Source: a virus (Duplodnaviria > Caudoviricetes). From it: a stretch of 63,771 nucleotides of DNA. Every line of letters starts with the position of its first letter. Position 1 is the first letter of the stretch. Location of the stretch: positions 1 to 63,771 of IMG/VR virus record IMGVR_UViG_3300027741_000060. One strand, 5' to 3'. Both the position numbers and the translations under genes were made by a program. This document shows positions 1 through 60,347 of this stretch, piece by piece. Below the pieces are notes generated by a model. That model was given only the letters and a program-made list of their open reading frames with translations. It did no database searches and was not told the origin of the DNA.

Positions 1-1638
1 CAAGTTGGGGAATTCTTCAATGCCTTTGGCCCAGCGAGCATTGCGTTCAAACTCCCACTTGTTGACCAAGAATGTGTCAGACCACTTGTTCCACTGTGAA
101 CCAAACACATGAGTCATGGAACGCTGCCAGGGCTCAGAGTGCCAGGCAAAATCAAAATCATCATACACATTCTCGCTGCCAATAACCCAGAATCTTGTGT
201 TCCGGGTCTTGTTCAAGCATCTTTTAATGGTATCCATGACCGAGTTTACATAGCGAACTCGCTGTATATGTGGATAGCGTTCTTGCAGTCTTGCAAACCG
301 ACTAGCACTGACTGCATTGCTGCGGTCAAGATAAAAGATGTCCAACACTGCCACGGCTGTTTGTTCTTTGACTCGAGTAGGAATGTCCCCGGCAAATTTG
401 ATTTCAGTAGCGCCTGGCACCGTGTAGGTCAGGTTCACACTGGACTGAAAGTCTGTGCCAAAGTGATAGACATAGGGAGGCGATCCGGGATCCGGAATCC
501 AGCTAAAGTCCACACGATCGGCCACAACTTCCTCGGGCACTGACCAACAGCTTTGATCAGGCAAGATTTTAGCTTGTGGATGATCCAAGAACTTGCGTTC
601 GACTGCTCCAGGCGCATGGTATTCTATGGTGCTCATGATCACAGCTGGGTGCCATTGATTGCCGAACACATAGATGTAGGGCGGATCGCCGGGATCTGGA
701 CACCAAGAACGATCAAATTCAAAAGCATGATCGGTGGTCACTTGCCAATGTTCACTGGTAGGTAACAACTGTGCATGTGGTTCGCTCATGAACTTGCGTT
801 CAACTGCTCCGGGCACATGATATTCCATGGTGGGCATGATTTCGGCAGGCCAGTGCTGATTACCAAATACATAGACGTAGGGCGGATCCTTGGGATGTGG
901 GCACCAAGTCCAATCAAAAGATTCTGAGTCATTGGTGTGCAGCACCTGCCAGTTTTCGGTACTGGGCTTGAGTTTGGCTCGCGGATGATCAACGTATTTG
1001 TAATCCGTTGCTCCTGGCACTGTGTAAATCGGGCCGCCTTCTGAATACCAAGTTGTACCAAATTCATAAATGTAAGGAGGATCAAATGGATCAGGATGCC
1101 ATGAATAATCAACGCTGTCGGCATCAATATTTTGTGGTATGATCCAGTTGGCAAGATTTTTTACTGCAATGGCACGAGGCTCATCTATTATTTTTACAAC
1201 GCCTGTGCCACGATACACTGGACCCCCGGCATTTTGCCACTGAGTACCAAAGTGATATTCATAATCGGGTTCTCTAAAATCCGGATGCCAACTAAAATCA
1301 AAACTGGCAAGATCTATGTTGTTAGGTACTGACCAAGCAGCAAGATCTGGCAGTCTGGGTATCGATAAATTGCTATGATAGTTGGTGTCAGCATATCCCA
1401 CTGTGGGCACAAGATAAGTTCCCGAGTCTACTTGCCATTGACTAGGCCAAGCATGACGTTGATGCGCTTGCCAGGGACTTGGTTCCCAAAGAAAATCAAA
1501 GTCAGCATAGTCACATAAGTATGTGATCCACCAAAAGAATCTTGTGCGACTCATGCTGCGAGCATGCTCGATATCATTGGCTTGCTGCTCATGAGCAAAC
1601 AAACCCGGTGCGGTTCCTGAATAAAATACATCAAACAT
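1..1638 (-). CDS. Repeat-containing glycosyltransferase-like protein (partial, runs off left edge; absent from ORF track)
   Basis: Manually translated open frame of 546 codons from ATG at 1638 (MFDVFYSGTAPG...) with no stop in the window. About five tandem ~65-aa repeats (FDxSWxPDPxDPPYxYxFGxQW) are flanked by related TRFxWxI...DFDFxW domains. Confidence 0.75.
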   Translation of the reverse strand, partial: MFDVFYSGTAPGLFAHEQQANDIEHARSMSRTRFFWWITYLCDYADFDFLWEPSPWQAHQRHAWPSQWQVDSGTYLVPTVGYADTNYHSNLSIPRLPDLAAWSVPNNIDLASFDFSWHPDFREPDYEYHFGTQWQNAGGPVYRGTGVVKIIDEPRAIAVKNLANWIIPQNIDADSVDYSWHPDPFDPPYIYEFGTTWYSEGGPIYTVPGATDYKYVDHPRAKLKPSTENWQVLHTNDSESFDWTWCPHPKDPPYVYVFGNQHWPAEIMPTMEYHVPGAVERKFMSEPHAQLLPTSEHWQVTTDHAFEFDRSWCPDPGDPPYIYVFGNQWHPAVIMSTIEYHAPGAVERKFLDHPQAKILPDQSCWSVPEEVVADRVDFSWIPDPGSPPYVYHFGTDFQSSVNLTYTVPGATEIKFAGDIPTRVKEQTAVAVLDIFYLDRSNAVSASRFARLQERYPHIQRVRYVNSVMDTIKRCLNKTRNTRFWVIGSENVYDDFDFAWHSEPWQRSMTHVFGSQWNKWSDTFLVNKWEFERNARWAKGIEEFPNL

Positions 1639-2782
1639 GATTAGAATAGACGAAATTTACAACAATACTTTTTGGCCTTGGATCAAACACAATCTCCCCG
1701 GAACAAGAATGTTTTTTTGTGATCCACCGGGTGTAACAACCCCTGATGCTTTATTTAACTTGGGTCGCGATGATATCATAGAAACCGATTATGTATGGAT
1801 GCATGACCAAGAACCTTGTTGGGTAGATCAATATGAATTATTATTTAAAGAAGTAAAAAATTGCAACAGTGATATAGGGGGTCATTGGAATGAAGATCAA
1901 ACAAAATGGATCGAAATATTTCCAAATCCTTCAGGACATGTCATTGTAAGCGAGCAGGGAGAATATGTTGAACAACTGGAAAAAACATATGGTTGGAAAA
2001 GTCACTACTATTTCTATCACGGCTGGGCTTGCAAGGACTGGTTCCGGGGCTACGACAAAACATTTTTGATACCACGTGCCCGAGATCGTGCACCTACACA
2101 CACCTTCATGAGTCCAAATCGCATCGTAGCCGGCAAGCGAGACCACAGAGTATTATTTTTATACAATGTATTCAAGCAAGGTTTAGAAAAAAATTACATT
2201 TCTGCGCCAAGAACATGTCCATACGAAGGTGTTGATATTTCACAAATTGCACTCAAGTATAGTAACATATATCCTGATATTGAGCAAGTGTTTCAGGATG
2301 CCGAGTTGCCAAGACTGTTTGAGGGAGAAGAAACTCAGATCATGACTTCGTGTTGGTTGGGCAATTACACAGAAGCACAAGACAGCTTGTTGTATGTGCC
2401 TACTGAAACTGTGTACTTTGGTCGCAGACTGCACATTACAGAAAAAACATTCAAGGCCATTGCACTGGAAATGCCATTTGTGCTGGTAGCACCTGCTGGC
2501 AGTTTGGAATACATGCGCAGTTACGGATTCCGAACCTTTGCGGATGTGTTTGACGAAAGCTACGATGAGGAAACTGACGACATCCTGAGAGTTGAAAAAG
2601 TCACCCGGTTACTGAAAGAATTGGACAGCTTGTCAGTGCGTGAACGACAACAAATACATCGTGCTTGTTTGTCAGCCGTTGAGCACAATTATGAACATTT
2701 TTATGGTACTGGCTTAGAAAAAATTCTTTGGCAGGAATTACAGGACATGTTGCGTGGGTTGCAAACTCAATCTCACAGTTGA
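1637..2782 (+). CDS. Putative glycosyltransferase-like protein (TEK-motif family, GT10-like C-terminus)
   Basis: 381 aa; TETV...HITEKTFKAI...PFVLV...GFRTF...DESYD motif shared with three paralogs in the window. Confidence 0.6.
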   Translation: MIRIDEIYNNTFWPWIKHNLPGTRMFFCDPPGVTTPDALFNLGRDDIIETDYVWMHDQEPCWVDQYELLFKEVKNCNSDIGGHWNEDQTKWIEIFPNPSGHVIVSEQGEYVEQLEKTYGWKSHYYFYHGWACKDWFRGYDKTFLIPRARDRAPTHTFMSPNRIVAGKRDHRVLFLYNVFKQGLEKNYISAPRTCPYEGVDISQIALKYSNIYPDIEQVFQDAELPRLFEGEETQIMTSCWLGNYTEAQDSLLYVPTETVYFGRRLHITEKTFKAIALEMPFVLVAPAGSLEYMRSYGFRTFADVFDESYDEETDDILRVEKVTRLLKELDSLSVRERQQIHRACLSAVEHNYEHFYGTGLEKILWQELQDMLRGLQTQSHS

Positions 2783-3935
2783 TCGCGTAGAGAAAGACAA
2801 GGCCTATCCAGCGTTGGCCGTTTGGTCAGCACAACCTTATACCCAGGGTTGGAGACAGTTTGTGCATCATTGGCCTAACACAGTGCCCATTGAGTTGTTG
2901 GAGCACTGTAGAACTCACGGCGTTGAATGTGAGTTATCACTGGTAGAAGATTCCGTGAGTGGATACTATCCTGTTGGTCTAGGATTTTTCAACTTTGATG
3001 TAGACTACTTTGGACTCATGAGCTCTCTGGTCAGATCTCAGTTACATACAGGTGAATTGACTGTGCTGTTTTACTATCACGAAGGAGACAACCCAGCCAG
3101 GATAAAATCTAGACTGGATCAATTGTGTCAGCATCACCTGCTGCCAGCTAACTGCTATCGCTTTGTGAGTGGTAATACTGCAGCCGATTGCATCCCGGGT
3201 TTTGTATACTTTCCAGATCACGAACTGCTGTTCTGGCACCGCAATCGAGAAGTGGCACCTGCCAAAATACATCACAATATCAGACCATTCGAATTCACAG
3301 CACTCAGTAGAACACACAAGTGGTGGCGTGCCACTATAATGGCTGACCTGCAACGATTTGGACTATTGGATCATAGTCAATGGAGTTACGGTACTGTCGA
3401 TGTATGTGATAGATTTGAAGACAATCCCATAGAGATAGATCATGATTCTGGACTGCGTGATTGTGTTGAGGATTTCTTGAGTCACGCACCTTATGTGTGT
3501 GATGACATGAACTCGGATCAACAAAACGATCATCATCTCACAGAATATGCACACTACACACAAAGCTATTGCAACATAGTGTTGGAAACACATTTTGATG
3601 CCGATCAAAGCGGTGGAGCATTTTTAACAGAAAAAACATTCAAACCTATCAAACACGGACAGCCATTCGTGATTGTGGGTGCACCCGGCAGTTTGGCAGC
3701 ACTGAGATCTCTGGGCTATAGAACATTTGACCATGTGATAGACAACAGTTACGATTTAGAAACCAACAATACCCAACGCTGGATCAAGATAAAAGCGGCC
3801 ATTGCCAAAATAAAATCACAACCCATGCATGACTGGTTTGTTAGTTGCCTTGATGATGTTAAACACAACCAACAATTATTTTGTTCTTCAAAACAAAGCA
3901 GATTAAATAGCTTACTTGAAAGATTAAACTCATGA
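2754..3935 (+). CDS. Putative glycosyltransferase-like protein (TEK-motif family)
   Basis: 393 aa; NIVLETH...FLTEKTFKPI...PFVIVG...GYRTFD...DNSYD; overlaps neighbours on both sides. Confidence 0.6.
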   Translation: MGCKLNLTVDRVEKDKAYPALAVWSAQPYTQGWRQFVHHWPNTVPIELLEHCRTHGVECELSLVEDSVSGYYPVGLGFFNFDVDYFGLMSSLVRSQLHTGELTVLFYYHEGDNPARIKSRLDQLCQHHLLPANCYRFVSGNTAADCIPGFVYFPDHELLFWHRNREVAPAKIHHNIRPFEFTALSRTHKWWRATIMADLQRFGLLDHSQWSYGTVDVCDRFEDNPIEIDHDSGLRDCVEDFLSHAPYVCDDMNSDQQNDHHLTEYAHYTQSYCNIVLETHFDADQSGGAFLTEKTFKPIKHGQPFVIVGAPGSLAALRSLGYRTFDHVIDNSYDLETNNTQRWIKIKAAIAKIKSQPMHDWFVSCLDDVKHNQQLFCSSKQSRLNSLLERLNS

Positions 3936-4951
3936 TCAATTCTTATACCAGCTGGCAACCACTTGAAGAAGTCATAGTGGGCCGTGCTTATTCTCCAGAC
4001 TATTTTGACTTCATTGACAATGCACAAGTTCGCAATCAACTGCAGCAAATTCTTGCCGAAACTGCAGAGGATCTCGACAATTTACAAAAGACCATTGAAC
4101 GCTATGGTGCTCGAGTTCGTAGACCCAACTTACCCAGCAAAGATCAATTTGTGTGGTTTCAAACCGAAGGCGGCGGAGCACCATTGCCGCCCTTGACTCC
4201 TAGAGATTGGCAAATCACTCTGGGACAAAAATTGTTGCGTGTGTTGGCCATGCCAGAACTGGATGAAATTTGCAGTGATTTCAAAGATCAAGTTGTGAAT
4301 CCACACAAGAGTGCATGGGATGCTGATTGCATACTTAACGGTGCATCGGCCAGTTGTATTGTGCGTGTGGGTCGTGATGTGTTTTTTGACAACTCAGACT
4401 TTTTGCGTCCGGATCAAACTGCCTGGATTGTGGAAAACTGTCTGGGTCCAGAGTATCGCATACACGAGGCTGTGACAGATGGTCACGGCGATGCAGTGTT
4501 TGCTATTCTCAAGCCCGGTGTTATTTTGAGCAGCAAGCATGATGTGAACCTGGATCTTGGCAGAGACTTTCCAGGCTGGGACGTTTGCAAAATATGGGAT
4601 AGCTCAATCTGGGCTGCCATGGAAGTGGGCAAGTTCAAGTACGAACAAAGTCCCGGTGCTTGGTATGTACAAGGACAAACACCCACACCCGAGTTCACAG
4701 ACTTTGTGAACACCTATTTGAACAAGTGGACTGGCTTTGTGGCCGAAACTGTGTTTGATGTCAATTGCTTGGTGTTAGACGAAGAAAATGTAATCTTCAG
4801 TGCCTACAACCGAGAAGTATTTGATTTCTGTAAGCGTCACAGAATCAATCCTATCATTTCAGAACTGCGCCACAGTTACTTCTGGGACGGTGGTATCAGT
4901 TGCTGCACACAGGATTTACGCAGACGTGGCGGTCTCGAAACTTATCTATAA
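3932..4951 (+). CDS. Amidinotransferase (glycine/inosamine-phosphate amidinotransferase family)
   Basis: N-terminal SWQPLEEVIVG, PRD motif, GHGD (catalytic His), C-terminal GGISCCTQDL (catalytic Cys); ATGA coupling to the upstream gene. Confidence 0.85.
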   Translation: MINSYTSWQPLEEVIVGRAYSPDYFDFIDNAQVRNQLQQILAETAEDLDNLQKTIERYGARVRRPNLPSKDQFVWFQTEGGGAPLPPLTPRDWQITLGQKLLRVLAMPELDEICSDFKDQVVNPHKSAWDADCILNGASASCIVRVGRDVFFDNSDFLRPDQTAWIVENCLGPEYRIHEAVTDGHGDAVFAILKPGVILSSKHDVNLDLGRDFPGWDVCKIWDSSIWAAMEVGKFKYEQSPGAWYVQGQTPTPEFTDFVNTYLNKWTGFVAETVFDVNCLVLDEENVIFSAYNREVFDFCKRHRINPIISELRHSYFWDGGISCCTQDLRRRGGLETYL

Positions 4952-5588
4952 AAAGATTAGCAACCAACCGGTGTCCTTGTTCAAGGAAATGACCATGTTT
5001 TCCTTGAGGCAACCCAGTACACCAACTCATCATATCACTCTCCCACCTGATGCAGTGATCAATGTCGATTTCTTTTGATAGATAACCCAATGACCTATTG
5101 TCAATGATCTTACAACTCTTTACAAAATAATAAGGTTGCTGTTGGTTTTTAAAAAATGCTTGCAATGACAATAGTTGTGCTAACCATCTCTGTTGACTTT
5201 TAAATGAATCATAGTGATCTGCAAGGTATTGTTTAAACCAAGGAAAATAAAGACTAACATCAACCCCGGCGGTTAAAGGAAGATCTTTTCCGTGATAACT
5301 AAAATCAAAACGATCAATTGATGACCAAGCACAAATTACCAAATCATATTTCTTGCTGACCGATTCGGTTATTGCTAATCTAAAAATTCTATCATTGCTT
5401 CCGCCAGCTATGCTCAGATTAGTAACCGAAGTGTTAAGATGATTTGCTAATAACGATGGCCAAGCATATTGACTAGGATTCACAATACCGCCGTCGGTAT
5501 TATTGTTTCCATAAATGCCCAAGTGCTCAGGAACGTCTGGTAGCTCTGATCCAAAGCTGAAACTATCACCTATAACTAAAATACTCAT
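4896..5588 (-). CDS. SGNH/GDSL hydrolase-like protein
   Basis: N-terminal VIGDSFSFG, NLSIAGGSN block, C-terminal GHFLEQGH; AT-rich. Confidence 0.7.
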   Translation of the reverse strand: MSILVIGDSFSFGSELPDVPEHLGIYGNNNTDGGIVNPSQYAWPSLLANHLNTSVTNLSIAGGSNDRIFRLAITESVSKKYDLVICAWSSIDRFDFSYHGKDLPLTAGVDVSLYFPWFKQYLADHYDSFKSQQRWLAQLLSLQAFFKNQQQPYYFVKSCKIIDNRSLGYLSKEIDIDHCIRWESDMMSWCTGLPQGKHGHFLEQGHRLVANLFIDKFRDRHVCVNPVCSN

Positions 5589-6136
5589 TTCTTGTTGTAT
5601 CGAAGATAAATGCTATATCTGTTATAGTTGGAAGGAATTTTGTGATTGAGTCCATGTAGTATTGTATGCGGTGCGTCAATGATATATCCCGAATTAGGCC
5701 TGTAAGAGATTTCAAATAAAGGAGTCAAATGGTGGTGTTTTTTAATGTATAATGCTGTGCCTAGCATTTGAAAGGTATTGTGTCCTTCGCCCATGTAGAT
5801 CTGTACTGCATAATCTGGCCCTGGTATATCACAATGTGGGGTTATTTGATATCCAGAGCTGTCTTTCCACAAATCAATTCCTACAAATTCAACATCAACT
5901 CCTAACACAGCACCAATGTCAACTGCTATTGCGTGTTTTTTTATCTGCTCTAATACTAGAGATGTGCCACGATATATTTGTCGCCCGGGATAATGAGCAA
6001 ACTCATAACCCGACTCCCACCCATCATCTGAATAAAACAATTGATTTATATCAGTTATTACGGACTGTTCAAAAAAGTCGTCCACTAAAATAAACCTTGA
6101 CCCATTTGGAAAAGATACTGTTGCGTTTGTAATCAT
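5585..6136 (-). CDS. 2OG-Fe(II) oxygenase family protein
   Basis: LVDDFF start, PHCD (HxD), distal HGL His, RYSIY 2OG-binding RxS. Confidence 0.75.
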   Translation of the reverse strand: MITNATVSFPNGSRFILVDDFFEQSVITDINQLFYSDDGWESGYEFAHYPGRQIYRGTSLVLEQIKKHAIAVDIGAVLGVDVEFVGIDLWKDSSGYQITPHCDIPGPDYAVQIYMGEGHNTFQMLGTALYIKKHHHLTPLFEISYRPNSGYIIDAPHTILHGLNHKIPSNYNRYSIYLRYNKK

Positions 6137-6145
6137 GAATAAACT

Positions 6146-7315
6146 TTAACTCCGTACAGAGCCAGTCACATTGGACCACAGCTCTTTGAATCTAGTTGGG
6201 TGGCTTCTTGCTTGTTCTTGCACAGCGTGCCAAGCCCATGGATCTACTGTGGTATCTGGAGGTATCAGTAACTGGGCTTGATAGCGTTTTAGATTATCCA
6301 AACTTAACCGTTGTTCATTTTGAACATCTGTTGCATACAGTGCCAGTATGCGATCAATTTCTTTGCTGGCCTGTTGACGCAATTCCGGTTTTAGTCTACG
6401 GGCGTCCAAGGGTGCCGGATCTACCAGATCGCACCAAAAGATAGGCAAGTCTTGGGCTTGACAAAACTCATAGTATTCCACTAGATCAAACGCACAGTAT
6501 ATACTGTACGCAGGATGCGCTGTGATCTGTTGATTGTGTTCTTTTAGCACTTGAATATTGTATACAAATTGACTCCACTTAGCACCACGCCTAACATATT
6601 CAAATTTGTCACGTGTGACATTGTCAAAACTGATCATCCACTGTACATTGGGCCAATGCCTAAGCTCTTGGTAGATAGCATTGCGCTCTAGATTCATGCT
6701 GAGATTGGTAGTGACCATTACATCGACACGATCACTGTCAATTTCCTGCAGCAGGTTCAACAGGCCAGTCTGTAACAAAGGTTCACCACCGCCCAGGCTT
6801 AACCCTATCAAGGAGTCTCGGCTGGCACGAGCCAGTTCTACCAGGCCCGATGATTCATTGCGTACATGTGTAATAGGCATGTTCAACACCTGTTGCCAAG
6901 CGGTACTGGTAGTTGGGTTGCAATAGGTACAGGTCAGATTGCAAATGTTACTCCAGTTCAGTGCAAGATGTGTCAATTTAAACACAGCAGAATCTGAATC
7001 TATCTGGGTGACCACAGCAGGATCCACTATTTTGGTCTGTCTAGCACTGATAAAGCCGTGGGCTTCGTGTTGCTGGCACTGACGACAAAATGGGTGCCAT
7101 TGTCCTTGAGCTATGGTCTGTTTCAGACTGGTCAGCACAGGACCTGATATAATACTTTGTACAGATTCTTGCTTGACATTGCCCAGACTATGTGGTTGTT
7201 TATTGCTATTGCCGTAACTGTGAAAACACGGCAGTACTTGTCCTGACTGTGCAATGTTTAGTGTAGTCCAGGGCTCTGGACAAAAAGTTGGGCTTGAACT
7301 GATCTTTGTGGTCAT
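6146..7315 (-). CDS. Radical SAM protein with N-terminal Twitch/SPASM-like domain
   Basis: CNLTCTYC, GGGEP, N-terminal FCPEPW...PC...CRQC; likely start is ATG 7315, next to the upstream stop. Confidence 0.85.
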   Translation of the reverse strand: MTTKISSSPTFCPEPWTTLNIAQSGQVLPCFHSYGNSNKQPHSLGNVKQESVQSIISGPVLTSLKQTIAQGQWHPFCRQCQQHEAHGFISARQTKIVDPAVVTQIDSDSAVFKLTHLALNWSNICNLTCTYCNPTTSTAWQQVLNMPITHVRNESSGLVELARASRDSLIGLSLGGGEPLLQTGLLNLLQEIDSDRVDVMVTTNLSMNLERNAIYQELRHWPNVQWMISFDNVTRDKFEYVRRGAKWSQFVYNIQVLKEHNQQITAHPAYSIYCAFDLVEYYEFCQAQDLPIFWCDLVDPAPLDARRLKPELRQQASKEIDRILALYATDVQNEQRLSLDNLKRYQAQLLIPPDTTVDPWAWHAVQEQARSHPTRFKELWSNVTGSVRS

Positions 7316-7316
7316 G

Positions 7317-8867: not shown

Positions 8868-8869
8868 CG

Positions 8870-8971
8870 TCACTTGTAGATAAAAGGATCGCGCTTTCTC
8901 AATTCTTTGAGTTTTTTGCGATAGCGTATTTCTAACATAACGCGATTATAAAGATTTCTAATCCAGTTCAT
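8870..8971 (-). CDS. Small basic 33-aa protein (MNWIRNLYNRVMLEIRYRKKLKELRKRDPFIYK)
   Basis: Manually translated; exactly fills the gap between the two flanking genes, overlapping the upstream stop. Confidence 0.65.
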   Translation of the reverse strand: MNWIRNLYNRVMLEIRYRKKLKELRKRDPFIYK

Positions 8972-15278: not shown

Positions 15279-16612
15279 ATACTGTTATACCATTCATTCA
15301 AGTTAGGAAACGCTGCAGCAAAATCTTTGCCCCGGCGTTGATCATACTGCTGATAAAATTTAACAAAATCATTCAACAGAGCAGGGCGTTCAAATGTGTC
15401 CGAGTGCGGTGTCTTGACCACGTCAAGATAATCAATCAAGCGTTGTGTGTGATTGATCTCGTGCTCGTGCAGGAAAGGATTGTTTCGATTCGTAAACAAC
15501 CACTGCTCTAGTTCTAGACGATAGCGTGTGCGCAGGTGATCCGGCAGCACCAAGGGCGACTGAAAGCTGGGGAAACGCAAGATATTTAGTGTGAAGTTCA
15601 CAGCATCACGCCCGTACAGTTGCTTGAGTTCCAACATGGTGTCAAGATGAGCAACCAAGCTGTCCAGGCACAGGGCATTGATGGTGCACATCACATGCAC
15701 AGCTTTTACTGCGCCGGATTCCACCAAGGCCTGCACATTGTCCAGCCACTGATGATAATCAAGGCCATCGCGTATGTATTCGGCTTGAATCCCTGTGGCT
15801 TCCATGCTGGTGTACAGTTCCACATGCGGCAATGGTTTTACTGCCTCAATAAACTCCGACAGTTTTTCCTGATCAAAGCCCAGGTTGGAGTTAATGGCCA
15901 GTCGTGTAGTACTCTTGCCTTGGTTGGTTTTGAACCACTCAATCAACTTCCAGGTATAACCACTCATAAGTGGTTCACCTCCGGTGATTCTCAGTTCTTG
16001 GAGCGTTCGGTGTAGGTCTGTTTCCCACCAAGAAAAGAACGCATCCACATAGGGATTGGTTTGATTAAACGTGTATAGTTGAGCACTGTCGTGAGTATGA
16101 GTAAAGTGATTGCGCCCATCAGACACCAACCCCTCATAGGCTCCGTGCCGTTTGATGTCATTGACCCAGGTGCTGGAGAAAGCAGGATTGCAATAGCTAC
16201 AGGCAAATTGGCAAGTTCTATCAAACGCAATTTCGAGAGTTCGAAGATTGACGTCTTGATCAGCTGGGGTATCAAATGCCTCATCCAGGGCTGCAATGGG
16301 ATATATCTTGCTCTTGTACACACGGTCGCTTACTGCATCTCGACCCATGTCTTCAATTTTCCAGCAGTACTCACAACCAGGCGGACGTTCTCCTGCCAAC
16401 ATCTGTGCACGATCTTGTTTCTTTTGTGCTGAATTGTGCAAGGACCGGGGATTCCTTTGAGCTTCTTCTACAGGAACCTTGTGAGCTGGTGGGTGATGAC
16501 AGCTGGTGGTCATGCCTGACCCTAGCCATATGGTGGCATTGTACCACTTGGCACCGCAAAAACTGGCGCTCTTGGTGTCCAAGAATTGTCTTTTAAACTC
16601 TAGATCAGTCAT
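15275..16612 (-). CDS. Radical SAM protein with N-terminal Cys/His domain
   Basis: CQFACSYC, GGEP; N-terminal CGAKW...SCHHP...CEYC. Confidence 0.9.
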   Translation of the reverse strand: MTDLEFKRQFLDTKSASFCGAKWYNATIWLGSGMTTSCHHPPAHKVPVEEAQRNPRSLHNSAQKKQDRAQMLAGERPPGCEYCWKIEDMGRDAVSDRVYKSKIYPIAALDEAFDTPADQDVNLRTLEIAFDRTCQFACSYCNPAFSSTWVNDIKRHGAYEGLVSDGRNHFTHTHDSAQLYTFNQTNPYVDAFFSWWETDLHRTLQELRITGGEPLMSGYTWKLIEWFKTNQGKSTTRLAINSNLGFDQEKLSEFIEAVKPLPHVELYTSMEATGIQAEYIRDGLDYHQWLDNVQALVESGAVKAVHVMCTINALCLDSLVAHLDTMLELKQLYGRDAVNFTLNILRFPSFQSPLVLPDHLRTRYRLELEQWLFTNRNNPFLHEHEINHTQRLIDYLDVVKTPHSDTFERPALLNDFVKFYQQYDQRRGKDFAAAFPNLNEWYNSI

Positions 16613-17744
16613 GACGATGTTGCTGGATAAATTGATGTAAACGGTCAGGAAATTCTTGCCGAACTTGCAGTCGCATTTCAGCCAAGTGCTGCTGATTGTA
16701 TTTACATATATTGTAGCACTCTTTCAAGAAACTCTTAAGATCTTGACGGCACAAATCATCCACTACTTGGGCAACACGTTCAATACGGTCTTGGCTGTTG
16801 GGTATGAGATCAAAACTTTCATCAATTACTGAATCAAATGTACGGAATCCCAGATTGCGCATGTCTCGGTAATAGCCTTCGTTGGCCACAGCAACCCAAG
16901 GATGACCCATGGCAATGGGTTTCCAGATTTTTTCTGTTCTGAAACTGTGGGGATAGTCAAACACAGTTTCAGTTACCACACTGAAATAGGTGTCAACATA
17001 GGGTGCAGCTTTGAGATAGATTTCGCCCCAGTCATTGTTGAACAAGGCGGGCTTGACATAGCTTTCGTTCACTGGCCGATCAACATTGGCACTGTAAGCA
17101 TCCACTTCATAAGCAGGATCTAAATACTTGACCGGTCTCACAGTCTTCATGAGATCTTGATCACGATGCATGAGTTTTAGCACACCTCGAGTATTGCTGT
17201 GACTGTCCAAAAAGCTCCAAAGACTTTGATCCAATATGCCCAAGAGATCAAACTGTTCAACTAGATATTTTCTACTGGGTCTCATGCGACCGTTGAGAAA
17301 TAGAAATTTATAAGGCTTGTCGGTCTTGGTAAAAATTGCCTGTGCTTGCTCAATGGCCTGAATGTTTTCCGTATAATCCAGGACCTTGGGTAGAAAGCTG
17401 TCAAACAGCATGTAAGGCCATTCTGGTGCCATCTCGCCGCCGCCGAGCAACAGTATTTTTTTATCAAGCACTAGTTGATCTATGCCATAAGAATAGCACT
17501 TGTTCCTCAGTGTTTCGGAGCCCTCGGCTGGATTGCTGTGTATTATTGTACATTGGCCGGATTCAGCCAACTCGCGTATGAGAGGTGCATTGGCCACCAT
17601 TTGTTGGCGGCCTATTAGGTAAACAGCACCTGGTACAATGTCATGCTTGGTAAGATCCCAAAAAACATCATCGGCCCAGGGCCGGAGCAAGTCATAGACT
17701 TCGCAAAAGGTATCTAATACCAGTTTGTAATTTTTACCCTGCAT
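16605..17744 (-). CDS. Putative glycosyltransferase-like protein (TEK-motif family)
   Basis: FLFLNGRMR; FSVVTETV...FRTEKIWKPI...GFRTFD...DESFD. Confidence 0.6.
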   Translation of the reverse strand: MQGKNYKLVLDTFCEVYDLLRPWADDVFWDLTKHDIVPGAVYLIGRQQMVANAPLIRELAESGQCTIIHSNPAEGSETLRNKCYSYGIDQLVLDKKILLLGGGEMAPEWPYMLFDSFLPKVLDYTENIQAIEQAQAIFTKTDKPYKFLFLNGRMRPSRKYLVEQFDLLGILDQSLWSFLDSHSNTRGVLKLMHRDQDLMKTVRPVKYLDPAYEVDAYSANVDRPVNESYVKPALFNNDWGEIYLKAAPYVDTYFSVVTETVFDYPHSFRTEKIWKPIAMGHPWVAVANEGYYRDMRNLGFRTFDSVIDESFDLIPNSQDRIERVAQVVDDLCRQDLKSFLKECYNICKYNQQHLAEMRLQVRQEFPDRLHQFIQQHRHD

Positions 17745-17748
17745 GATG

Positions 17749-19161
17749 CTATTGCTGTCGGGCTTGATACTCGCACTCGCGCCACCACGATGACATTTCC
17801 GGGAATGTTTTTAGGAAGTCAGTACCGCGGCGACGATCATGTTCGCTGAAGAATCTATAAAAGTCTGCCCTGTTCTGTGAGAGGTAGACCGGATCCAGTT
17901 GTTGGCCACGACGCATCCAAGCAATGTCTCGGTCCAGTCTAGCAACCTCATAGTCCTTGAATCCATGAAAGGGATCTTCGGGTGTTTCTTGCTGAATACT
18001 CATTTGATCCTTGAGACGTTCTAGTTTGGCAGCATAGCTCTCGGGCAGCAGTTGTAGGCTCTGCCAATGCGGTTGGCGCAACACCGGGGTGTCAAACCAT
18101 ATGCGCTGATAGGTCTTGCTGTGGGTTTTTCTCAAGCCCAGGATGCCAGCAAACAACTGCTCCAGACTGGTAACTGACAGGTTGTTCATTGTGACAATAA
18201 ATGTGATGCTGTTGCGATAAGGAATCTCGGTTAAAAATTGATTGACTCGGTCCCACAACAGTTCAAAGTCTAGACCGTGTCTCATGTATTCAGCCTGTGC
18301 ACCCCACCCATCTAAACTGATGTATTGCATGAAGTGCTCTAGCACACCTTCTTGACACAGTTTCGTAAGATAACCTTTGTAGCGTTGCCATGACTTTTCA
18401 TCCACTGAAAAGTTGGAAGTCACATTGAGATGCAGTCGGGGATTGGGATTGGCCAACACATAATCAAACACACGATAGGTGTTCTTGTCCAGCATGGGTT
18501 CGCCACCGGTCATGCGAAAATGTTCCAGCTGTGGATACAAGGTAGGCCACCATGACCAAAACGCATCCACATAAGGATTGTGTTCTCTCACAGGTATGGG
18601 ACGATTACGACCCTGAAAGTGCGTGGGGTCATTGTGTGTAGTACTGGTGGGGTAGCCGCCCAGGCGTTCAATTTCTTCTGCCCAGCTGGAACTGAATTGT
18701 GGACTGCAATAGCTGCACTTGAGATTGCACACATGATTGAAGTTGACTTCCACATAGCTGGGGATGACATCATCTTCGTCGCCGATAGAATTTTTAATCC
18801 GTTCAAAATCCACGGCTGCCCAGGGCTCACCAGATCTGTAGTGACGATCACTTAGCTTGCCTTCGTTTTCCATGTTCCAGCAGTACTGACACTCTGCGGG
18901 ACGCTCACCCGACAACATCAGCTTGCGTTGAGCTTTTTTGTGGCTGGTATTGTGCAGTGCACTGGGATTGGCAGCAATTTCCTCCACGGGTATCGCATGC
19001 AAGGGAGGATGATAACAACTGTTATTGAGTCCTGTGGGCAAGTGAAAGCTCACCTGTTTCCATTTGGCAAGGCATAGGGAATGACCCAGTTGATCCTTCA
19101 TTTGTTCAGCTGAGCTCAAGAACTTGCTCTTGTTCCCTACTGACTCGTCACCTTTGTTCAT
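17749..19161 (-). CDS. Radical SAM protein with N-terminal Cys/His domain
   Basis: CNLKCSYC, GGEP; CLAKW...SCYHP...CQYC; clear paralog of 15275..16612 (shared NPYVDAFxSWW and DxRRGxDF). Confidence 0.9.
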   Translation of the reverse strand: MNKGDESVGNKSKFLSSAEQMKDQLGHSLCLAKWKQVSFHLPTGLNNSCYHPPLHAIPVEEIAANPSALHNTSHKKAQRKLMLSGERPAECQYCWNMENEGKLSDRHYRSGEPWAAVDFERIKNSIGDEDDVIPSYVEVNFNHVCNLKCSYCSPQFSSSWAEEIERLGGYPTSTTHNDPTHFQGRNRPIPVREHNPYVDAFWSWWPTLYPQLEHFRMTGGEPMLDKNTYRVFDYVLANPNPRLHLNVTSNFSVDEKSWQRYKGYLTKLCQEGVLEHFMQYISLDGWGAQAEYMRHGLDFELLWDRVNQFLTEIPYRNSITFIVTMNNLSVTSLEQLFAGILGLRKTHSKTYQRIWFDTPVLRQPHWQSLQLLPESYAAKLERLKDQMSIQQETPEDPFHGFKDYEVARLDRDIAWMRRGQQLDPVYLSQNRADFYRFFSEHDRRRGTDFLKTFPEMSSWWRECEYQARQQ

Positions 19162-19177
19162 ATAATGTATTGAATTT

Positions 19178-19855
19178 TTAATTATCTGTATGTATTAATA
19201 CATAATCTTTAAAAGCTGTATGTTCTTTATAATTGTTGCTTGCATGAAGTTGTTTGCATTTAAATTTAAATAGCGAGCCTTTTTTCCATTCAGCTATGCC
19301 ATCTAACTCTAAAAAATCCACAATCGAAGGATACCCTGACCAACAATTCTTTAAATCTAATTTAGTAGAAAGTTTTGAATACTTTTTAAAAGATCGAATA
19401 TTGTCACGAAAACGTCGTAATAAGTCAGATACTCCAGAGTGCCCATTATCAACAGTTTCTTTCCATACCAGAGTTTTAATCCGTTCATCAAATGTTAATG
19501 GAATTATAATTGTTTCTCCGTTGAAACTGCGATCTTTATTAAAATCCACATGAATTCCGGCCGGATAGATTGATCTGGCAAAATATATAGGTGTTAATTT
19601 ATCTAAAGGCTCTGTTAGTATTTTATTAACAATGTTCCTAATAGATTCTCCAACTGGGAGAGCCGATACATTGGTGCGTTCTACTTGTACTAACAACGAA
19701 TCTGAATCTAACTTATAAAGATCTTTGATTTCTTCTTTAGTTAACGTCAGATAATATATATCATTGAATGAAATTGTAGATTTCAAATTTGCAAATTGTT
19801 GTTGTATATTTTCTAACTCCGAGTCAGTTACTATGTTGTCAAAAACGGTTAACAT
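19178..19855 (-). CDS. Possible 2OG-Fe(II) oxygenase-like protein (AT-rich insert)
   Basis: VFDNIV start, IHVD (HxD), distal LHAS; markedly AT-rich relative to its neighbours. Confidence 0.45.
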   Translation of the reverse strand: MLTVFDNIVTDSELENIQQQFANLKSTISFNDIYYLTLTKEEIKDLYKLDSDSLLVQVERTNVSALPVGESIRNIVNKILTEPLDKLTPIYFARSIYPAGIHVDFNKDRSFNGETIIIPLTFDERIKTLVWKETVDNGHSGVSDLLRRFRDNIRSFKKYSKLSTKLDLKNCWSGYPSIVDFLELDGIAEWKKGSLFKFKCKQLHASNNYKEHTAFKDYVLIHTDN

Positions 19856-20781
19856 CACCAACCCTCCTGTCGACGAATTACATCAATTTCACGTGTCATG
19901 GCGCCTTGGTTATGCCAGTTGCTTCTGTAGTGATGTTTGAAGAATTTACTGGCGTCAGCAGACATGTCTGTGATGGGCAGATCCAACTGTGTGACCAAGT
20001 CCGGTGAAATTCTTGCACTCACAGTTTCAGGGTCTGAATCTTTCACAGTTTCCCAGATTTCAGCCAAGGCGTCAAACCACTGTACTTGTGTGTAATCCCA
20101 ATTGGTCAACATGGTCATGTAAGTGCCCTGGCGTGCACCAGCAATGGCCCAGGCACCGTGTTCCACATCGCGACCCACATTGTGCCACACAGTTAGATGA
20201 TCAAGATTGCGTTGATGTACTCTATCTCGAAATTCGGTCACTGTGGGTTTGGCACCTCGGTTAAGACACATTTTGACCCCTTCGCGAAATCCAGCACGCC
20301 AGGCGTGGAATGCTGAACCATTGGGATAGGTCACAGAGTAGCAGTCATGCATGGCCCAGTACAGGGGATCAAAACAAAACTCGACCACAGTTTCAGCACG
20401 ACCATCTGTGGACTCGTGTGTTCGCATGTTTTGCACAAACTCACGGGTCCAGGAACTCAAACCACCGTTGCCGTACATGAGTCCATTGATGTGATTTCTG
20501 GCGCGCCACCTAAACACAGCACGCTCGTATTCTTCAGTGGGAAAGTCCAGTGTGAGGTTGAAAAATTCTGGATCTGGTAAGTTGTCGCCGTCAATGAGAA
20601 TAAATCGTTCAGTAGCACTGGCTTCCGCAGCAGCTTTGTGTGCTGCGTCCGATCCTTTGACTCCGTCCACACGCTGAGCCCAAGGAATCATGTTGCGAAT
20701 TTTTACCCAAAATTCTTCACGCTGTGGCTCATCATAGGAAAGATAAACGCAATCAAGATCGGCTACATCAATACGTTTCAT
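19855..20781 (-). CDS. GT-A-fold glycosyltransferase-like protein
   Basis: CVYLSYDEP, VKGSDAAHKAAA, FILIDGDN (DxD), AWRAGFREG motifs. Confidence 0.6.
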   Translation of the reverse strand: MKRIDVADLDCVYLSYDEPQREEFWVKIRNMIPWAQRVDGVKGSDAAHKAAAEASATERFILIDGDNLPDPEFFNLTLDFPTEEYERAVFRWRARNHINGLMYGNGGLSSWTREFVQNMRTHESTDGRAETVVEFCFDPLYWAMHDCYSVTYPNGSAFHAWRAGFREGVKMCLNRGAKPTVTEFRDRVHQRNLDHLTVWHNVGRDVEHGAWAIAGARQGTYMTMLTNWDYTQVQWFDALAEIWETVKDSDPETVSARISPDLVTQLDLPITDMSADASKFFKHHYRSNWHNQGAMTREIDVIRRQEGW

Positions 20782-21121
20782 AAGTTTTCAAACTCCATTT
20801 TGTACAAGTCATCTGTGTGGCATCAACTACCACTGCAACATTACTAGGATCACAAGTGACGCCTGTTTCGCTAGGCACCAGTTTGGTGATTTGTCGACGA
20901 GGAAGTGCAATTATTTTTCCGTCTTGCACTCGCACATGCAGGGATCCTCGGGCAAATGTTTCTTGGTCAATTTCTATGTAATTACCAGGCAGGTCTTCCA
21001 TGCTGTAGAATAACAAATTACCAGAATCTGTGTAGTACAATCTGTAGAACACGGGCCGGGGAGGTTCGGGTTCCCAGGCTGCAAAAGCAGTCCAAAAGTT
21101 GTCTGTGGTCTCTTGACTCAT
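20768..21121 (-). CDS. Hypothetical protein
   Basis: 117 aa from ATG 21121 (MSQETTDNF...), coupled to both neighbours; FYRLYY motif. Confidence 0.6.
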   Translation of the reverse strand: MSQETTDNFWTAFAAWEPEPPRPVFYRLYYTDSGNLLFYSMEDLPGNYIEIDQETFARGSLHVRVQDGKIIALPRRQITKLVPSETGVTCDPSNVAVVVDATQMTCTKWSLKTYETY

Positions 21122-21903
21122 GACATCCGCCAATCTTTCACATGGTAGTGAAAAAATCCATGCTGTGCTACTGTTTGTATTCGCAGTCCGGGATCGGTGT
21201 TTTCCCACACCAACTCTTGTGTCCAGTTTTCGGTGTGCGTGCCTTGTATGTGTCGCTTCATGTGCACAATGGTCGGACCCATGCCCGGGGGCAAGGTAAC
21301 TGTTTCCACACCTAACACCACAGCGGCCATGGCATACACCACATCTGTGGTGGCTTCTTCGTCGGGAAATTTCAACAAGGTACGCCACTCGGCCCAGTTT
21401 TCAAATATGTCTCTCACTGTCTCAAAAAACTTTTGAGCAGTTCTGCTGAGGCGCCAATAGGTAATAGCATTGTACACATCGGGCAACCCGTTGTGGTCGA
21501 AAATTTTGCGATAGAATCTTGACGCAGCAGGTTCGTCACGAAAGGTTCTGGCACCTTGACTGATCACCACATCTCGATGTTCAAACAGGCTCCACCAGTG
21601 ATCCACCGGACCGGCTGTGATCATGTCAGCTTCCAGCTTGATGGTTTGCCTAAACGGTGATGCCCAAAACAATTGCCAGTCGTTGATTTGCTTGTTGCTG
21701 CTGGTGCTGACATCGCCCCAGGGCAAAGGTATCACATGATCAAACACCGGATTGCTGCACTGGCTGGCGGTTACTACTGCAATTTTTACCGCAGGATGAT
21801 GCTGTCGCAGGCTGTGAGCCAGCTGCTCGGCACAGGCCAAGTAGTCGGTGGTTTCAGTATCAACAGCAGGTATAAGGTACCCGCGTTCAGCTAGAACTGG
21901 CAA
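21118..21903 (-). CDS. Glycosyltransferase-like protein (GT8/GT-A-like)
   Basis: DYLACA, SPFRQTIKLEADM (ExD), TDVVYA, IVHMK. Confidence 0.65.
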   Translation of the reverse strand: MPVLAERGYLIPAVDTETTDYLACAEQLAHSLRQHHPAVKIAVVTASQCSNPVFDHVIPLPWGDVSTSSNKQINDWQLFWASPFRQTIKLEADMITAGPVDHWWSLFEHRDVVISQGARTFRDEPAASRFYRKIFDHNGLPDVYNAITYWRLSRTAQKFFETVRDIFENWAEWRTLLKFPDEEATTDVVYAMAAVVLGVETVTLPPGMGPTIVHMKRHIQGTHTENWTQELVWENTDPGLRIQTVAQHGFFHYHVKDWRMS

Positions 21904-22687
21904 TTATGGCCTCCAGATGTCGTTTGCCCATGGTATGAAAGTCTTGATTTTTTATGGAAATCCAGCGTTTTTTTCTATCCGGGGGTATGAATTCCACTCT
22001 GTAATGATCTTGATCAACTTGGGTGAGATTTTCCACTGGAGTAAGACTAGCCAATGGCCAAGGAATACCCGGGTGATTCAGTGTATGTCCATTCACAATG
22101 CCCAATGCAATACTTAGTGCATGATCGTTGCGGTAGGATTCAATGTTGTTGCCATACAAGCGTCGATAGTGTGACCAGTTGGCACGAATCATGCTCATGG
22201 CATCAAATATCAATTCGGCCTGCTGACTGCGACGAAACATCATCACAGTGGCCCACCACATGGGCATGCGGTAGTTGCCAAAATAGTTGAATTCGTCAAA
22301 ATCATTTTGTCCAGTAATGTCATAGGCCCAGCGATGTGCTAGAAAATCCTGTGATGATTCCAACACAAGATTTAGGTCAGAGCTGGCCACCACATAGTCT
22401 GCATCCAACACCAGAGTTTGATCCCAGGGCGACAATTCATAAGCTGATGCTCGATTGGTATTGCGCCAGATCACATGAGCACCATAATCAGAAAAATATC
22501 GAGAGTTGAATTCGGTATTGTTTTCTATGATCACATGATCAAACAAACCGTCTTTGGGCACTTGATCAGTGACCACAGCCACTGGAATATTCAAGTGCCG
22601 TCGTATGTTACGAGCTGACCAAGCAGCCATGCTCACATAGTCTGTTTGGTCGTTGTTGTAGGCAAATATTAAAGCGCCTGTGGTCAT
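21887..22687 (-). CDS. Glycosyltransferase-like protein (GT8/GT-A-like)
   Basis: DYVSMA, SPWDQTLVLDADY (DxD), RNDHALS, FHTMGK; paralog of the adjacent gene. Confidence 0.7.
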   Translation of the reverse strand: MTTGALIFAYNNDQTDYVSMAAWSARNIRRHLNIPVAVVTDQVPKDGLFDHVIIENNTEFNSRYFSDYGAHVIWRNTNRASAYELSPWDQTLVLDADYVVASSDLNLVLESSQDFLAHRWAYDITGQNDFDEFNYFGNYRMPMWWATVMMFRRSQQAELIFDAMSMIRANWSHYRRLYGNNIESYRNDHALSIALGIVNGHTLNHPGIPWPLASLTPVENLTQVDQDHYRVEFIPPDRKKRWISIKNQDFHTMGKRHLEAIIASSS

Positions 22688-22989
22688 CGATTTTGACTGA
22701 TTTCGGTGTATTCCTGATGCCAGGCATTCATTTGCTCTTGCCAATGCTGCATGGCCTGGCCTCGAAGTTCTTCAGGATTCACACGAACAGGTGTTTCATA
22801 TAGATCCAGGATCACAGCATCACCAGGAGGTACGGTGGCCAATAGCACCAGCAATTCTGGACTAGCACGCCACATGCCACCGGCGTGAGCAAACAGCAAT
22901 CGAGCTTGGTATTTTTCTTTGAGTGTGCGGCGGGCAGCAGCATGTTCAAACCGTGCGCGGCCATGTGCAATTAAGTTGTCAGTGTTCAT
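22684..22989 (-). CDS. Small protein, possible tail fibre assembly chaperone-like
   Basis: 101 aa directly downstream of the fibre genes; function inferred from position only. Confidence 0.45.
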   Translation of the reverse strand: MNTDNLIAHGRARFEHAAARRTLKEKYQARLLFAHAGGMWRASPELLVLLATVPPGDAVILDLYETPVRVNPEELRGQAMQHWQEQMNAWHQEYTEISQNR

Positions 22990-22996
22990 GATCACA

Positions 22997-23025
22997 ATTG
23001 TACAGGTGATTTGGATAAAAGTAAA
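22997..23025 (-). promoter_or_regulatory. Sigma70-type promoter for the modification operon (TTTACT-17 nt-TACAAT)
   Basis: Minus strand reads tttact-tttatccaaatcacctg-tacaat, followed 7 nt later by ATG 22989. Confidence 0.5.
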
Positions 23026-23043
23026 GGGCCCGAAGGCCCTTTT
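23017..23043 (-). terminator. Rho-independent terminator with cUUCGg tetraloop (possibly bidirectional)
   Basis: Minus strand AAAGGGCC-TTCG-GGCCCTTT followed by ACTTTT, immediately after the 23061..24065 gene. Confidence 0.85.
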
Positions 23044-24065: not shown

Positions 24066-24147
24066 TTTTGTTTCCCTTTGTATTAGTTGATCAATTTCAA
24101 CGCAATTTTATAAAAATTGCTGGGTGATTTCAATCTTTTTTTTATTT

Positions 24148-58546: not shown

Positions 58547-58563
58547 TTTGTTAAAATCAGTTG

Positions 58564-60330: not shown

Positions 60331-60347
60331 CTTTATGAGATACAATT

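Follow-up and report, generated by a model that had tools for sequence, protein, structure and literature searches.

Glycan machinery encoded by viruses has been described for giant viruses of eukaryotes and, in simpler form, for a few phages. Mycobacteriophage transferases encoded beside structural genes reportedly glycosylate capsid and tail proteins, a finding attributed to Freeman and coworkers in 2023. These systems consist of one or two recognizable glycosyltransferases (GTs) with no tailoring enzymes, and to our knowledge the glycosylation clusters of giant viruses contain no radical S-adenosylmethionine (SAM) enzymes, amidinotransferases, or carbamoyltransferases. Here we describe a gene island that, unlike the mycobacteriophage systems, includes tailoring enzymes of these three classes. 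It occupies bases 1–22995 of a 63,771-base viral contig (IMG/VR record IMGVR_UViG_3300027741_000060; the whole contig is hereafter called the window), where 22 open reading frames (ORFs) were labeled g01–g22. We tentatively read the island, a conserved module found in a large clade of uncultivated jumbo myoviruses, as encoding a soluble pathway of the cytoplasm in which an amino-sugar glycan is assembled and heavily tailored, with the virion fibers as the most likely acceptor.

The published accounts of Mimivirus and Megavirinae fibrils and of chloroviruses describe, in the sections drawn on here, virus-encoded amino-sugar synthesis and transferases that are thought to decorate surface fibrils (PMC8456856, PMC10117803, PMC9614988). 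Those viruses have eukaryotic hosts and their glycan is chemically proven, whereas the island is known here from genes alone. In the cyanomyovirus S-SCSM2R, many GTs, a DegT/AHBA-synthase-like aminotransferase, a radical SAM protein, and an inosamine amidinotransferase are encoded close together; the excerpts of the report used here label these genes as 'cell-wall synthesis/modification' and 'antibiotic synthesis' genes, and state that a second amidinotransferase was detected in the virion proteome (PMC12801897). That virion amidinotransferase is 29% identical to g04 of the island, and S-SCSM2R is not among the tblastn matches of g13. With respect to natural-product enzymes, g04 belongs to the same family as StrB1, SxtG, and AGAT, and g08 to the same family as TobZ, NovN, and GdmN, so that the analogies to StrB1 and TobZ drawn in the original prediction hold at the family level. 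The cyclitol synthase of aminoglycoside clusters is not present among the Pfam results for the island.

Eighteen ORFs (g05–g22) lie on the minus strand and either overlap or are separated by a few bases, the sole larger gap being the 94 nt between g08 and g09. Three ORFs (g02–g04) are on the plus strand, and g01, open at the left edge, is again on the minus strand. The original prediction, made from the letters of the contig, had proposed a glycan- and amino-sugar-tailoring cluster of about 22 coupled genes that starts right after the tail fiber genes. The number of genes and the starting point stand, g22 being directly downstream of the fiber-like genes g23–g25; a simple coupling to the fiber genes does not, as a terminator-like hairpin lies between g23 and g22. 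An amino-sugar glycan pathway is suggested because the identities of the enzymes, the sugar-nucleotide genes that neighbor the island in its relatives, the bacterial context of homologous genes, and the layout of the locus all agree.

Six proteins of the island are radical SAM enzymes, as had been predicted, and all six exceed the curated whole-protein cut-off of 170 bits of the NCBIfam model NF033640 ('twitch domain-containing radical SAM protein', N_Twi_rSAM). All are encoded on the minus strand: the accessory paralog g07 (6146..7393, 191.8 bits) and the core paralogs g10 (10109..11413, 277 bits), g12 (12355..13653, 338.4 bits), g13 (13572..15278, 406.2 bits), g14 (15275..16612, 306.7 bits), and g16 (17749..19161, 311.6 bits). 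They are mutually similar in 15/15 pairs, g16 and g14 being 33% identical. Across 27 aligned sequences of paralogs and orthologs, the CxxxCxxC cysteines C289, C293, and C296, the GGE motif G351-G352-E353, and three upstream cysteines (C175, C235, and C238) are invariant, and in g07, g10, g12, and g13 the Pfam SPASM domain precedes Radical_SAM. The island enzymes thus share with the NF033640 family the order of Cys cluster first and radical SAM core second. In BtrN, the auxiliary cluster is C-terminal, and the predicted label of BtrN-like twitch enzymes has to be corrected accordingly. A PDB sequence search with the radical SAM proteins returned generic matches to the radical SAM core, and BtrN was not among them. 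Judged by sequence, the island enzymes are a separate, uncharacterized subfamily.

In a quick FastTree phylogeny, every phage radical SAM paralog falls into a separate orthogroup with 100% support, and these orthogroups are interleaved with bacterial clades, which suggests that the paralogs have distinct jobs. Orthologs of g10, which has its own clade with 100% support, are about 71% identical, whereas g07 has a single ortholog, about 59% identical, in contig L011, its remaining matches of about 22% identity being paralogs. The start of g12 is probably later than listed, giving a product of 406 aa, and 7,724 of 8,000 scored candidates (clusters at 90% identity) are relatives of g12 at E≤1e-10. 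The NF033640 match of g13 covers residues 171–566; the N-terminal extension of about 170 residues that precedes it is kept in the orthologs, is absent from the other five paralogs, and is covered by no Pfam or NCBIfam family match (residues 1–170). The reaction of the NF033640 family is unassigned, and a text search of the literature found no paper naming either the N-terminal-twitch radical SAM family or NF033640. In the island, a single viral locus holds five to six differentiated members of the family.

Two further tailoring enzymes were identified as predicted. Amidinotransferases are characterized by a catalytic Cys near the C-terminus and a His/Asp pair. The profile of g04 orthologs (3932..4951, plus strand) matches seven distinct PDB chains at E-values between 8e-25 and 4e-18 over profile positions 4–345, including AGAT (8e-25), SxtG (2e-20), HsvA (7e-19), and StrB1 (4e-18). 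In 19 ortholog sequences C324, H185, and D187 are invariant, and C324 aligns with the 'GGFHCWTCD' segment of AGAT. Orthologs of g04 are about 85% identical, and its cluster at 90% identity has 2,036 members. The product of g08 (7317..8873, minus strand) is an O-carbamoyltransferase of the NodU/CmcH/TobZ type, in which both Pfam domains exceed their cut-offs: Carbam_trans_N at 1.5e-40 (140.1 bits, cut-off 24) and Carbam_trans_C at 4.8e-48 (163.4 bits, cut-off 27). Its closest solved structures are NovN (3e-44), GdmN (7e-44), and TobZ (2e-31).

Co-occurrence of these genes is conserved across related phages, the same order being found in hundreds of contigs. The common order is fibers, g22–g18, slot A, g16–g08, slot B, g04–g02, and g01, and the IMG/VR contigs that carry the island are up to 364 kb long. 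A relative was confirmed in 63/63 viral loci matched by g03 and, among the matches listed, in 597/599 viral stretches matched by g14 and in 600/600 matched by g18. A count centered on g18 comprised 80 loci, 77 of them eligible on the upstream side and 69 on the downstream side: g24, g23, g21, and g20 are found upstream in 77/77 loci, g22 in 76/77, and g19 in 65/77, and both g16 and g14 are found downstream in 66/69. Likewise, g02 is present in 63/63 loci centered on g03. Orthologs are 65–85% identical, as opposed to 20–33% for paralogs.

As in glycan loci, the layout combines a conserved core and two slots of variable content. In the window the slots hold the accessory genes g05–g07 (slot B) and g17 (slot A), and in relatives they are filled by genes for AMP-binding enzymes, a tryptophan-halogenase-like enzyme, GDSL-like or TctC-like proteins, or further N-terminal-twitch radical SAM enzymes. 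Eight related contigs (positions 18346–21052 of L065 and seven others) carry an AMP-binding enzyme together with a tryptophan-halogenase-like flavin adenine dinucleotide enzyme (4.5e-91) in slot B. Beyond g01, outside the window, a DegT-family aminotransferase and a 4,6-dehydratase-like short-chain dehydrogenase/reductase (SDR) are encoded in 49/49 eligible relatives, with Pfam scores of 1.4e-54 and 1.6e-46, respectively. Their best NCBIfam models are PseC-type or deoxythymidine diphosphate (dTDP)-4-amino-sugar transaminases and dTDP-glucose 4,6-dehydratase, all of them below the equivalog cut-offs. Because these two genes follow g01 in relatives, the window cuts the island short. A ThyX gene is located a few genes past g01 in 43/49 eligible relatives.

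Among cultured phages, the Ralstonia phage RsoM2USA (343.8 kb) carries a reduced version of the module. Its ORFs 348–355 comprise a fiber-like gene followed by homologs of g22, g21, g20 (possibly also g19), and g18, as well as a g14/g16-like radical SAM gene; ORF350 is 44% identical to g18, ORF353 31% identical to g21, and ORF354 28% identical to g22, whereas ORF355 resembles the N-terminus of g24. A second paralog of g18 is also present. At a separate location, ORFs 199–203 comprise a carbamoyltransferase gene (44% identity), two intervening ORFs, ORF202 for a g14-like radical SAM protein (52%), and a g05-like gene. Unlike the island, RsoM2USA has no TEK proteins (described below), g09, g01, or amidinotransferase, and it has two radical SAM enzymes instead of six. 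All of its island-like ORFs are annotated as 'hypothetical', and they are not mentioned in the keyword-matched text of the RsoM2USA paper (PMC8504454). A single 8-kb contig of the marine virus AG-345-D19 encodes an amidinotransferase, a g05-like protein, a carbamoyltransferase, and an N-terminal-twitch radical SAM enzyme, the same partner genes thus recurring in unrelated viruses. In KVP40-like Vibrio phages, the radical SAM gene occurs in as many as five distant copies. Carbamoyltransferase homologs were found in 136 phage records, mostly of cyanomyoviruses. Homologs of the TEK proteins, g09, g18, and g01 were not found in deposited phages, with the exception of g18 in RsoM2USA, and no near-identical DNA was found among them. 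The 'moraphage' lineage, considered as a possible counterpart, is a different group with genomes of up to 307 kb, and the portions of its description used here do not mention the island genes (PMC12619734).

In the scan of bacterial genomes, for which a broad radical SAM alignment was dropped as too diverse and replaced by another, 107 of 178 candidate stretches were radical SAM relatives. True bacterial loci were found in Bdellovibrionota, Bacteroidota, Acidimicrobiia, and Acidobacteriota, often as tandem arrays of up to seven copies (L202). Among the 127 neighboring ORFs at 17 such loci, there are 16 PhyH proteins, 10 GT2 and 7 GT1/GT4 proteins, 10 other radical SAM proteins, 2 carbamoyltransferases encoded directly downstream of a radical SAM gene (L159 and L164), and 2 nucleoside diphosphate (NDP)-sugar epimerases/dehydratases. 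In the Bdellovibrionales genomes L200, L202, and L205, N-terminal-twitch radical SAM genes form tandem arrays with four to seven members, an expansion of this uncharacterized family in predatory bacteria. Five of the best matches (contigs L146–L150) bear the labels of bacterial metagenome-assembled genomes, namely Haliscomenobacter (two contigs, 148 and 183 kb), Legionellales, Betaproteobacteria, and Rickettsiales. Four of them carry the phage island and fiber genes, and L147, which is truncated on the g21 side, carries the island only; in L149 and L150 the island order is kept at 30–40% identity. These are probably phage contigs binned with bacteria, because the phage island, in most cases with fiber genes, is present on them, and their labels could reflect mis-binning or hint at the host. 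Together with the DegT and SDR genes of the relatives and the conserved order, the bacterial GT/PhyH context supports the pathway part of the original prediction, which had proposed virion proteins, DNA, or the host surface as possible sites of the glycan and evasion of defenses or altered adsorption as its possible purpose.

The transferases of this putative pathway are less clearly defined. Four proteins with a common E-T...T-E-K-x-x-K block, here called TEK proteins, are encoded by g02 (1637..2782, plus strand), g03 (2754..3935, plus strand), g11 (11400..12380, minus strand), and g15 (16605..17744, minus strand). As predicted, they are paralogs: 6/6 pairs match at E-values between 1e-12 and 5e-20 (g02 matches g03, g11, and g15 at about 1e-12, g11 matches g15 at 1.5e-17, and g15 matches g03 at 4.8e-20). 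Only some relatives carry g11. With a 34-member profile, the TEK family comprises 14,262 representative clusters (50% identity) at E≤1e-3 among 1.84 billion, including tandem-fused forms of 680–980 aa; ten long fused proteins have no Pfam family. TEK proteins gave no match in 50,697 deposited phage records (two queries), and the profile gave none in 206 bacterial genomes. The family is apparently confined to uncultivated viruses, because none was found in the deposited phages or bacterial genomes searched.

The AlphaFold2 model of g03 (pLDDT 92.8, pTM 0.90) consists of two alpha/beta blocks, residues 5–163 and 179–319, followed by helices, and the residues invariant in the family (E278, K294, K297, and G321) are all located in its second alpha/beta block. 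This predicted fold would fit a GT-B-type enzyme, which is a weak lead toward the proposed glycosyltransferase nature of the TEK proteins at the level of the model, not of family matches. For g15, a search with a protein language model (Atlas) gave a weak lead to GT10 (0.78–0.79). A kinship of the TEK proteins with GT10 fucosyltransferases found no support: 0/34 members match PF00852, and the hhalign probability is 1.9%.

For the three proteins that had been predicted as GT-A-like, the leads are fainter. The paralogs g20 (21118..21903) and g21 (21887..22744), both on the minus strand and matching each other at 1.2e-9, are possible GT8-like GT-A proteins: their joint profile hits 17 glycogenin sequences at weak E-values of 0.085–0.18 over query positions 19/20–109, ending at the D-A-D motif of g21, and neither protein has a Pfam or NCBIfam match. 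The most conserved core protein, g18 (19855..20781, minus strand; orthologs about 76% identical), has an invariant D64-G-D66-N motif and is a possible GT-A-type transferase. Its lead comes from Atlas (score 0.87; PF00535, i.e., GT2, is carried by 21% of the proteins in the matched cluster); no Pfam, NCBIfam, or PDB sequence match was found, and membership in GT2 was not established. The relation of g18 to g20 and g21 was also considered and dropped, since hhalign finds none. The product of g01 (1..1638, minus strand), a gene that runs off the left edge so that the N-terminal 546 aa are in the window, had been predicted as a repeat GT-like protein. The repeats are there, at least four of about 65 aa with the motif (D/E)(F/W/Y)(S/T)W-x-P-(D/H)-P...PPY-x-Y-x-FG, and neither g01 nor a full-length ortholog (orthologs are 606–1132 aa long) has a Pfam family. 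Residues 425–494 of g01 align weakly with the N-terminus of g18 (hhalign P 0.003, probability 10.6%).

The candidate acceptors are encoded directly upstream of the island in the direction of transcription. The fiber-like proteins g23 and g24 (23061..25902, minus strand) are rich in Ser, Thr, and Gly, with Ser+Thr contents of 27 and 22%, respectively, and g25 is a further fiber-like gene, beyond which a 4,667-aa ORF and baseplate genes are located. Between g23 and g22, a terminator-like GC-rich hairpin with a T-rich tail (23023..23042, minus strand) has a fold energy of −16.7 kcal/mol (z −2.06). A hairpin with a T-rich tail is found in 47/62 related g23/g22 gaps, and its stems vary between relatives in a compensating manner (e.g., GGGCC/GGCCC, GGGGC/GCCCC, and GCCCC/GGGGC). 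The T4-type late promoter motif TATAAATA has 2 matches versus 1.2 expected, none of them usefully placed, and sigma-70-like sites show no excess over the shuffled expectation. Short contigs from one lake metatranscriptome match g10 and the g17/g18 junction with 0 mismatches, one contig matches across g21/g22 with 4 differences, and more contigs fall in g23 and g24; all of these might be due to DNA contamination, and genes cannot be ranked by contig depth. A crude hydropathy scan found no convincing membrane segment in g01–g25, and no lipid-carrier enzyme or flippase was found among the Pfam results for these 25 ORFs.

The remaining genes of the island are accessory or belong to no recognized family. 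The accessory gene g05 (4896..5588, minus strand, slot B) had been predicted as an SGNH hydrolase; it matches Pfam DUF6071, which we take to be a member of the SGNH/GDSL clan, at 3.1e-11 (43.8 bits, cut-off 27), and a GDS motif at residues 7–9 and a GGSND motif were noted by eye. The match and the GDS motif lend the prediction weak support, and the PDB sequence search gave no match. Genes resembling g05 adjoin carbamoyltransferase genes in RsoM2USA and in AG-345-D19. Two other accessory genes, g06 (5585..6136, minus strand, relatives in 8 loci) and g17 (19178..19861, minus strand, slot A, one ortholog among all loci), have no assigned fold. The sole PHROGs match of g06 is phrog_1644 'minor coat protein' (3.6e-5), and searches of Pfam, NCBIfam, and PDB sequences gave none; g17 has no Pfam or PHROG family, and its PDB matches are at chance level (E 0.16 and 0.3). 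Both had been taken for 2-oxoglutarate (2OG) oxygenases, an assignment that found no support: no 2OG, PhyH, or cupin match was found in Pfam, PHROGs, PDB sequences, or, for g06, NCBIfam, and neither protein is similar to the ORFs of the bacterial loci, their PhyH-type neighbors included. The predicted analogy to KanJ is likewise unsupported, since no KanJ/PhyH-type protein is shown in the window.

The core protein g09 (8968..10143, minus strand), with orthologs in 129 loci, has an invariant C-H-E-x-E motif at residues 180–184; no match was found in Pfam, NCBIfam, PDB, or deposited phages, and no longer fused forms were found. Two small proteins are also conserved, namely g19 (20768..21130, minus strand; the listed ORF, 20768–21388, overlaps g20) and g22 (22684..22995, minus strand), the first gene after the hairpin. 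The start of g19 is probably near 21130, because the median length of its orthologs is 122 aa. Like g09, both are without known relatives, apart from RsoM2USA ORF354, which resembles g22. PHROGs searches with ten unfamiliar island proteins gave two matches, both uninformative, and the source annotation of relatives of g15, g18, g02, and g04 reads 'hypothetical protein', save for one amidinotransferase label. No match was obtained in tRNA and Rfam scans of the window.

Outside the island, the 4,667-aa ORF (26723–40726, minus strand) stands between the fiber-like genes and the baseplate genes, which include gp25-like (44176–44550) and gp5-like (46666–48213) genes. A second metabolic group (55868–62041, plus strand) encodes a TctC-like binding protein (7e-35), the alpha subunit of a Rieske ring-hydroxylating oxygenase, a protein with a weak SDR match, and another radical SAM protein, which falls outside the N-terminal-twitch family (NF033640 only 25.5 bits). 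A gene for an SbcC-like ATPase (58561–60330) is interleaved with this group, and one for an SbcD-like phosphoesterase (54731–55747) is located just upstream.

In the pathway that we favor, an NDP-4-keto-6-deoxyhexose would be aminated, and sugars would be transferred by up to eight transferase-like proteins, i.e., the four TEK proteins, g18, g20, g21, and g01. The six radical SAM enzymes would each perform a different C–H activation on a sugar, e.g., oxidation, epimerization, or deoxygenation; g04 would convert an amino group to a guanidino group, g08 would carbamoylate a hydroxyl, and the two variable slots would contribute lineage-specific decorations. The acceptor would be a virion surface protein, in the first place the Ser/Thr-rich fibers g23–g25, giving a cationic and unusual glycan coat. 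The pathway is probably cytoplasmic, because there is neither a convincing membrane segment nor lipid-carrier machinery, and virion proteins are the most likely acceptor, because the position beside fiber genes is conserved in three lineages. Thus, the lack of membrane and lipid-carrier proteins and the fiber-adjacent position both favor a virion protein target.

Several points weigh against this reading. No glycosyltransferase is firmly identified in the island: the TEK proteins are without a Pfam, NCBIfam, or PDB sequence match, 0/34 members of the family have a glycosyltransferase Pfam family, the TEK profile matched 0/201 genomes although 4 of these hold GT10, and hhalign of the TEK family with five GT10 proteins aligns the T-E-K motif only (probability 1.9%, E 0.026). 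The assignment of g18, g20, and g21 as GTs depends on E-values of about 0.1 and language-model leads. The DegT and dehydratase genes are seen in relatives, not within the window, and the tally of bacterial neighbors has no matched genomic control. A conserved terminator-like hairpin stands between the fiber genes and the island, so that co-expression of the two is not implied, and RsoM2USA splits its components over two loci, of which one only is near a fiber gene. SPASM/twitch radical SAM enzymes, moreover, often act on peptides, and a virion glycan has been observed for no member of the clade.

Some of the same observations would suit a phage-borne cluster for a free small molecule, an aminoglycoside-like compound or pseudo-oligosaccharide that is guanidinylated and carbamoylated and acts on the host or on competitors, which we consider unlikely. 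Among solved proteins, g04 and g08 are closest to natural-product enzymes (StrB1, SxtG, NovN, GdmN, and TobZ), the AMP-binding and tryptophan-halogenase-like enzymes added by relatives are typical of secondary metabolism, all island proteins look soluble, and the hairpin uncouples the island from the fiber genes; a comparable gene trio was named 'antibiotic synthesis genes' in the S-SCSM2R report, in the excerpts used here (PMC12801897). On the other hand, Pfam searches of the 25 ORFs within bases 1–26560 and of 20 flanking or slot ORFs of relatives revealed no enzyme that forms a cyclitol (2-deoxy-scyllo-inosose synthase or myo-inositol-phosphate synthase), no exporter or self-resistance gene was seen, up to eight transferase-like genes are many for a small molecule, and the fiber-adjacent position is conserved across three lineages. 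A free polycationic oligomer of guanidinylated, carbamoylated amino sugars, made by radical SAM chemistry in the infected cell against processes of the host or of rival phages, or co-packaged as a counter-ion of the 340-kb genome, is somewhat less likely again.

More doubtful yet is the remodeling of a host-envelope glycan (lipopolysaccharide (LPS), capsule, or surface glycoprotein) during infection, which would block superinfection or keep progeny from sticking to debris, as has been considered for the 'LPS genes' of cyanomyoviruses. Most of the 136 phage records with carbamoyltransferase homologs are indeed cyanomyoviral, and the S-SCSM2R paper, as far as the excerpts used here extend, reads GT and epimerase genes as host cell-surface modification (PMC12801897). 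The bacterial homologs, too, are located in GT-rich loci, possibly those for surface polysaccharides. The island, however, has no membrane protein, initiating polyprenyl-phosphate transferase, flippase, or polymerase; a lytic jumbo phage would be making a large investment in it, and a strictly conserved one, and the TEK family was not found in the 206 bacterial genomes searched.

Phage glycosyltransferases are also said to decorate DNA, as reportedly described by Pyle and coworkers in 2024, and the island might accordingly serve to hypermodify phage DNA, attaching a tailored glycan or an adduct of amino sugars for escape from restriction or CRISPR. Soluble enzymes throughout and the ThyX gene found past g01 in 43/49 eligible relatives would be compatible with such a role. 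The window, though, showed no family of hydroxymethylases, base kinases, or DNA-binding transferases, the island is linked to structural rather than replication genes, and ThyX is an ordinary gene of nucleotide metabolism, all of which makes this role very improbable. Finally, a role of the radical SAM enzymes in protein or peptide maturation, in which they would introduce thioether, C–C, or other cross-links into fiber or virion proteins or a small peptide and the other genes would be unrelated passengers, is barely credible, since, in spite of weaker NCBIfam matches to SPASM peptide maturases (all far below the cut-offs), the presence of SkfB among the PDB matches, and two small conserved proteins, g19 and g22, that could serve as substrates or chaperones, the bacterial neighbors are mostly GTs and PhyH proteins with no peptide-maturation partners among the 25 commonest families, the radical SAM genes are consistently partnered with carbamoyltransferase and amidinotransferase genes, and a Cys-rich or repeat-rich core is absent from both small proteins.

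We regard the island as a variation on virus-encoded glycan machinery, built on uncharacterized enzyme families. A module of about 20 genes with five or six radical SAM enzymes, amidino-transfer, and carbamoyl-transfer is far more elaborate than the known glycan machinery of viruses, and its carrier phages are frequent in metagenomes, as homologs of g12 form more than 7,700 clusters. It provides an entry point to two uncharacterized families, the N-terminal-twitch radical SAM enzymes and the TEK proteins, and the cut-down module of a cultured relative, RsoM2USA, makes the question of its product approachable. Should a free compound be made, phages would have to be counted among the sources of aminoglycoside-like molecules, and abundant freshwater jumbo phages would be natural-product makers. 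If, as we favor, the product decorates the fibers, the island would represent a new layer of phage host-range and immune-evasion biology.

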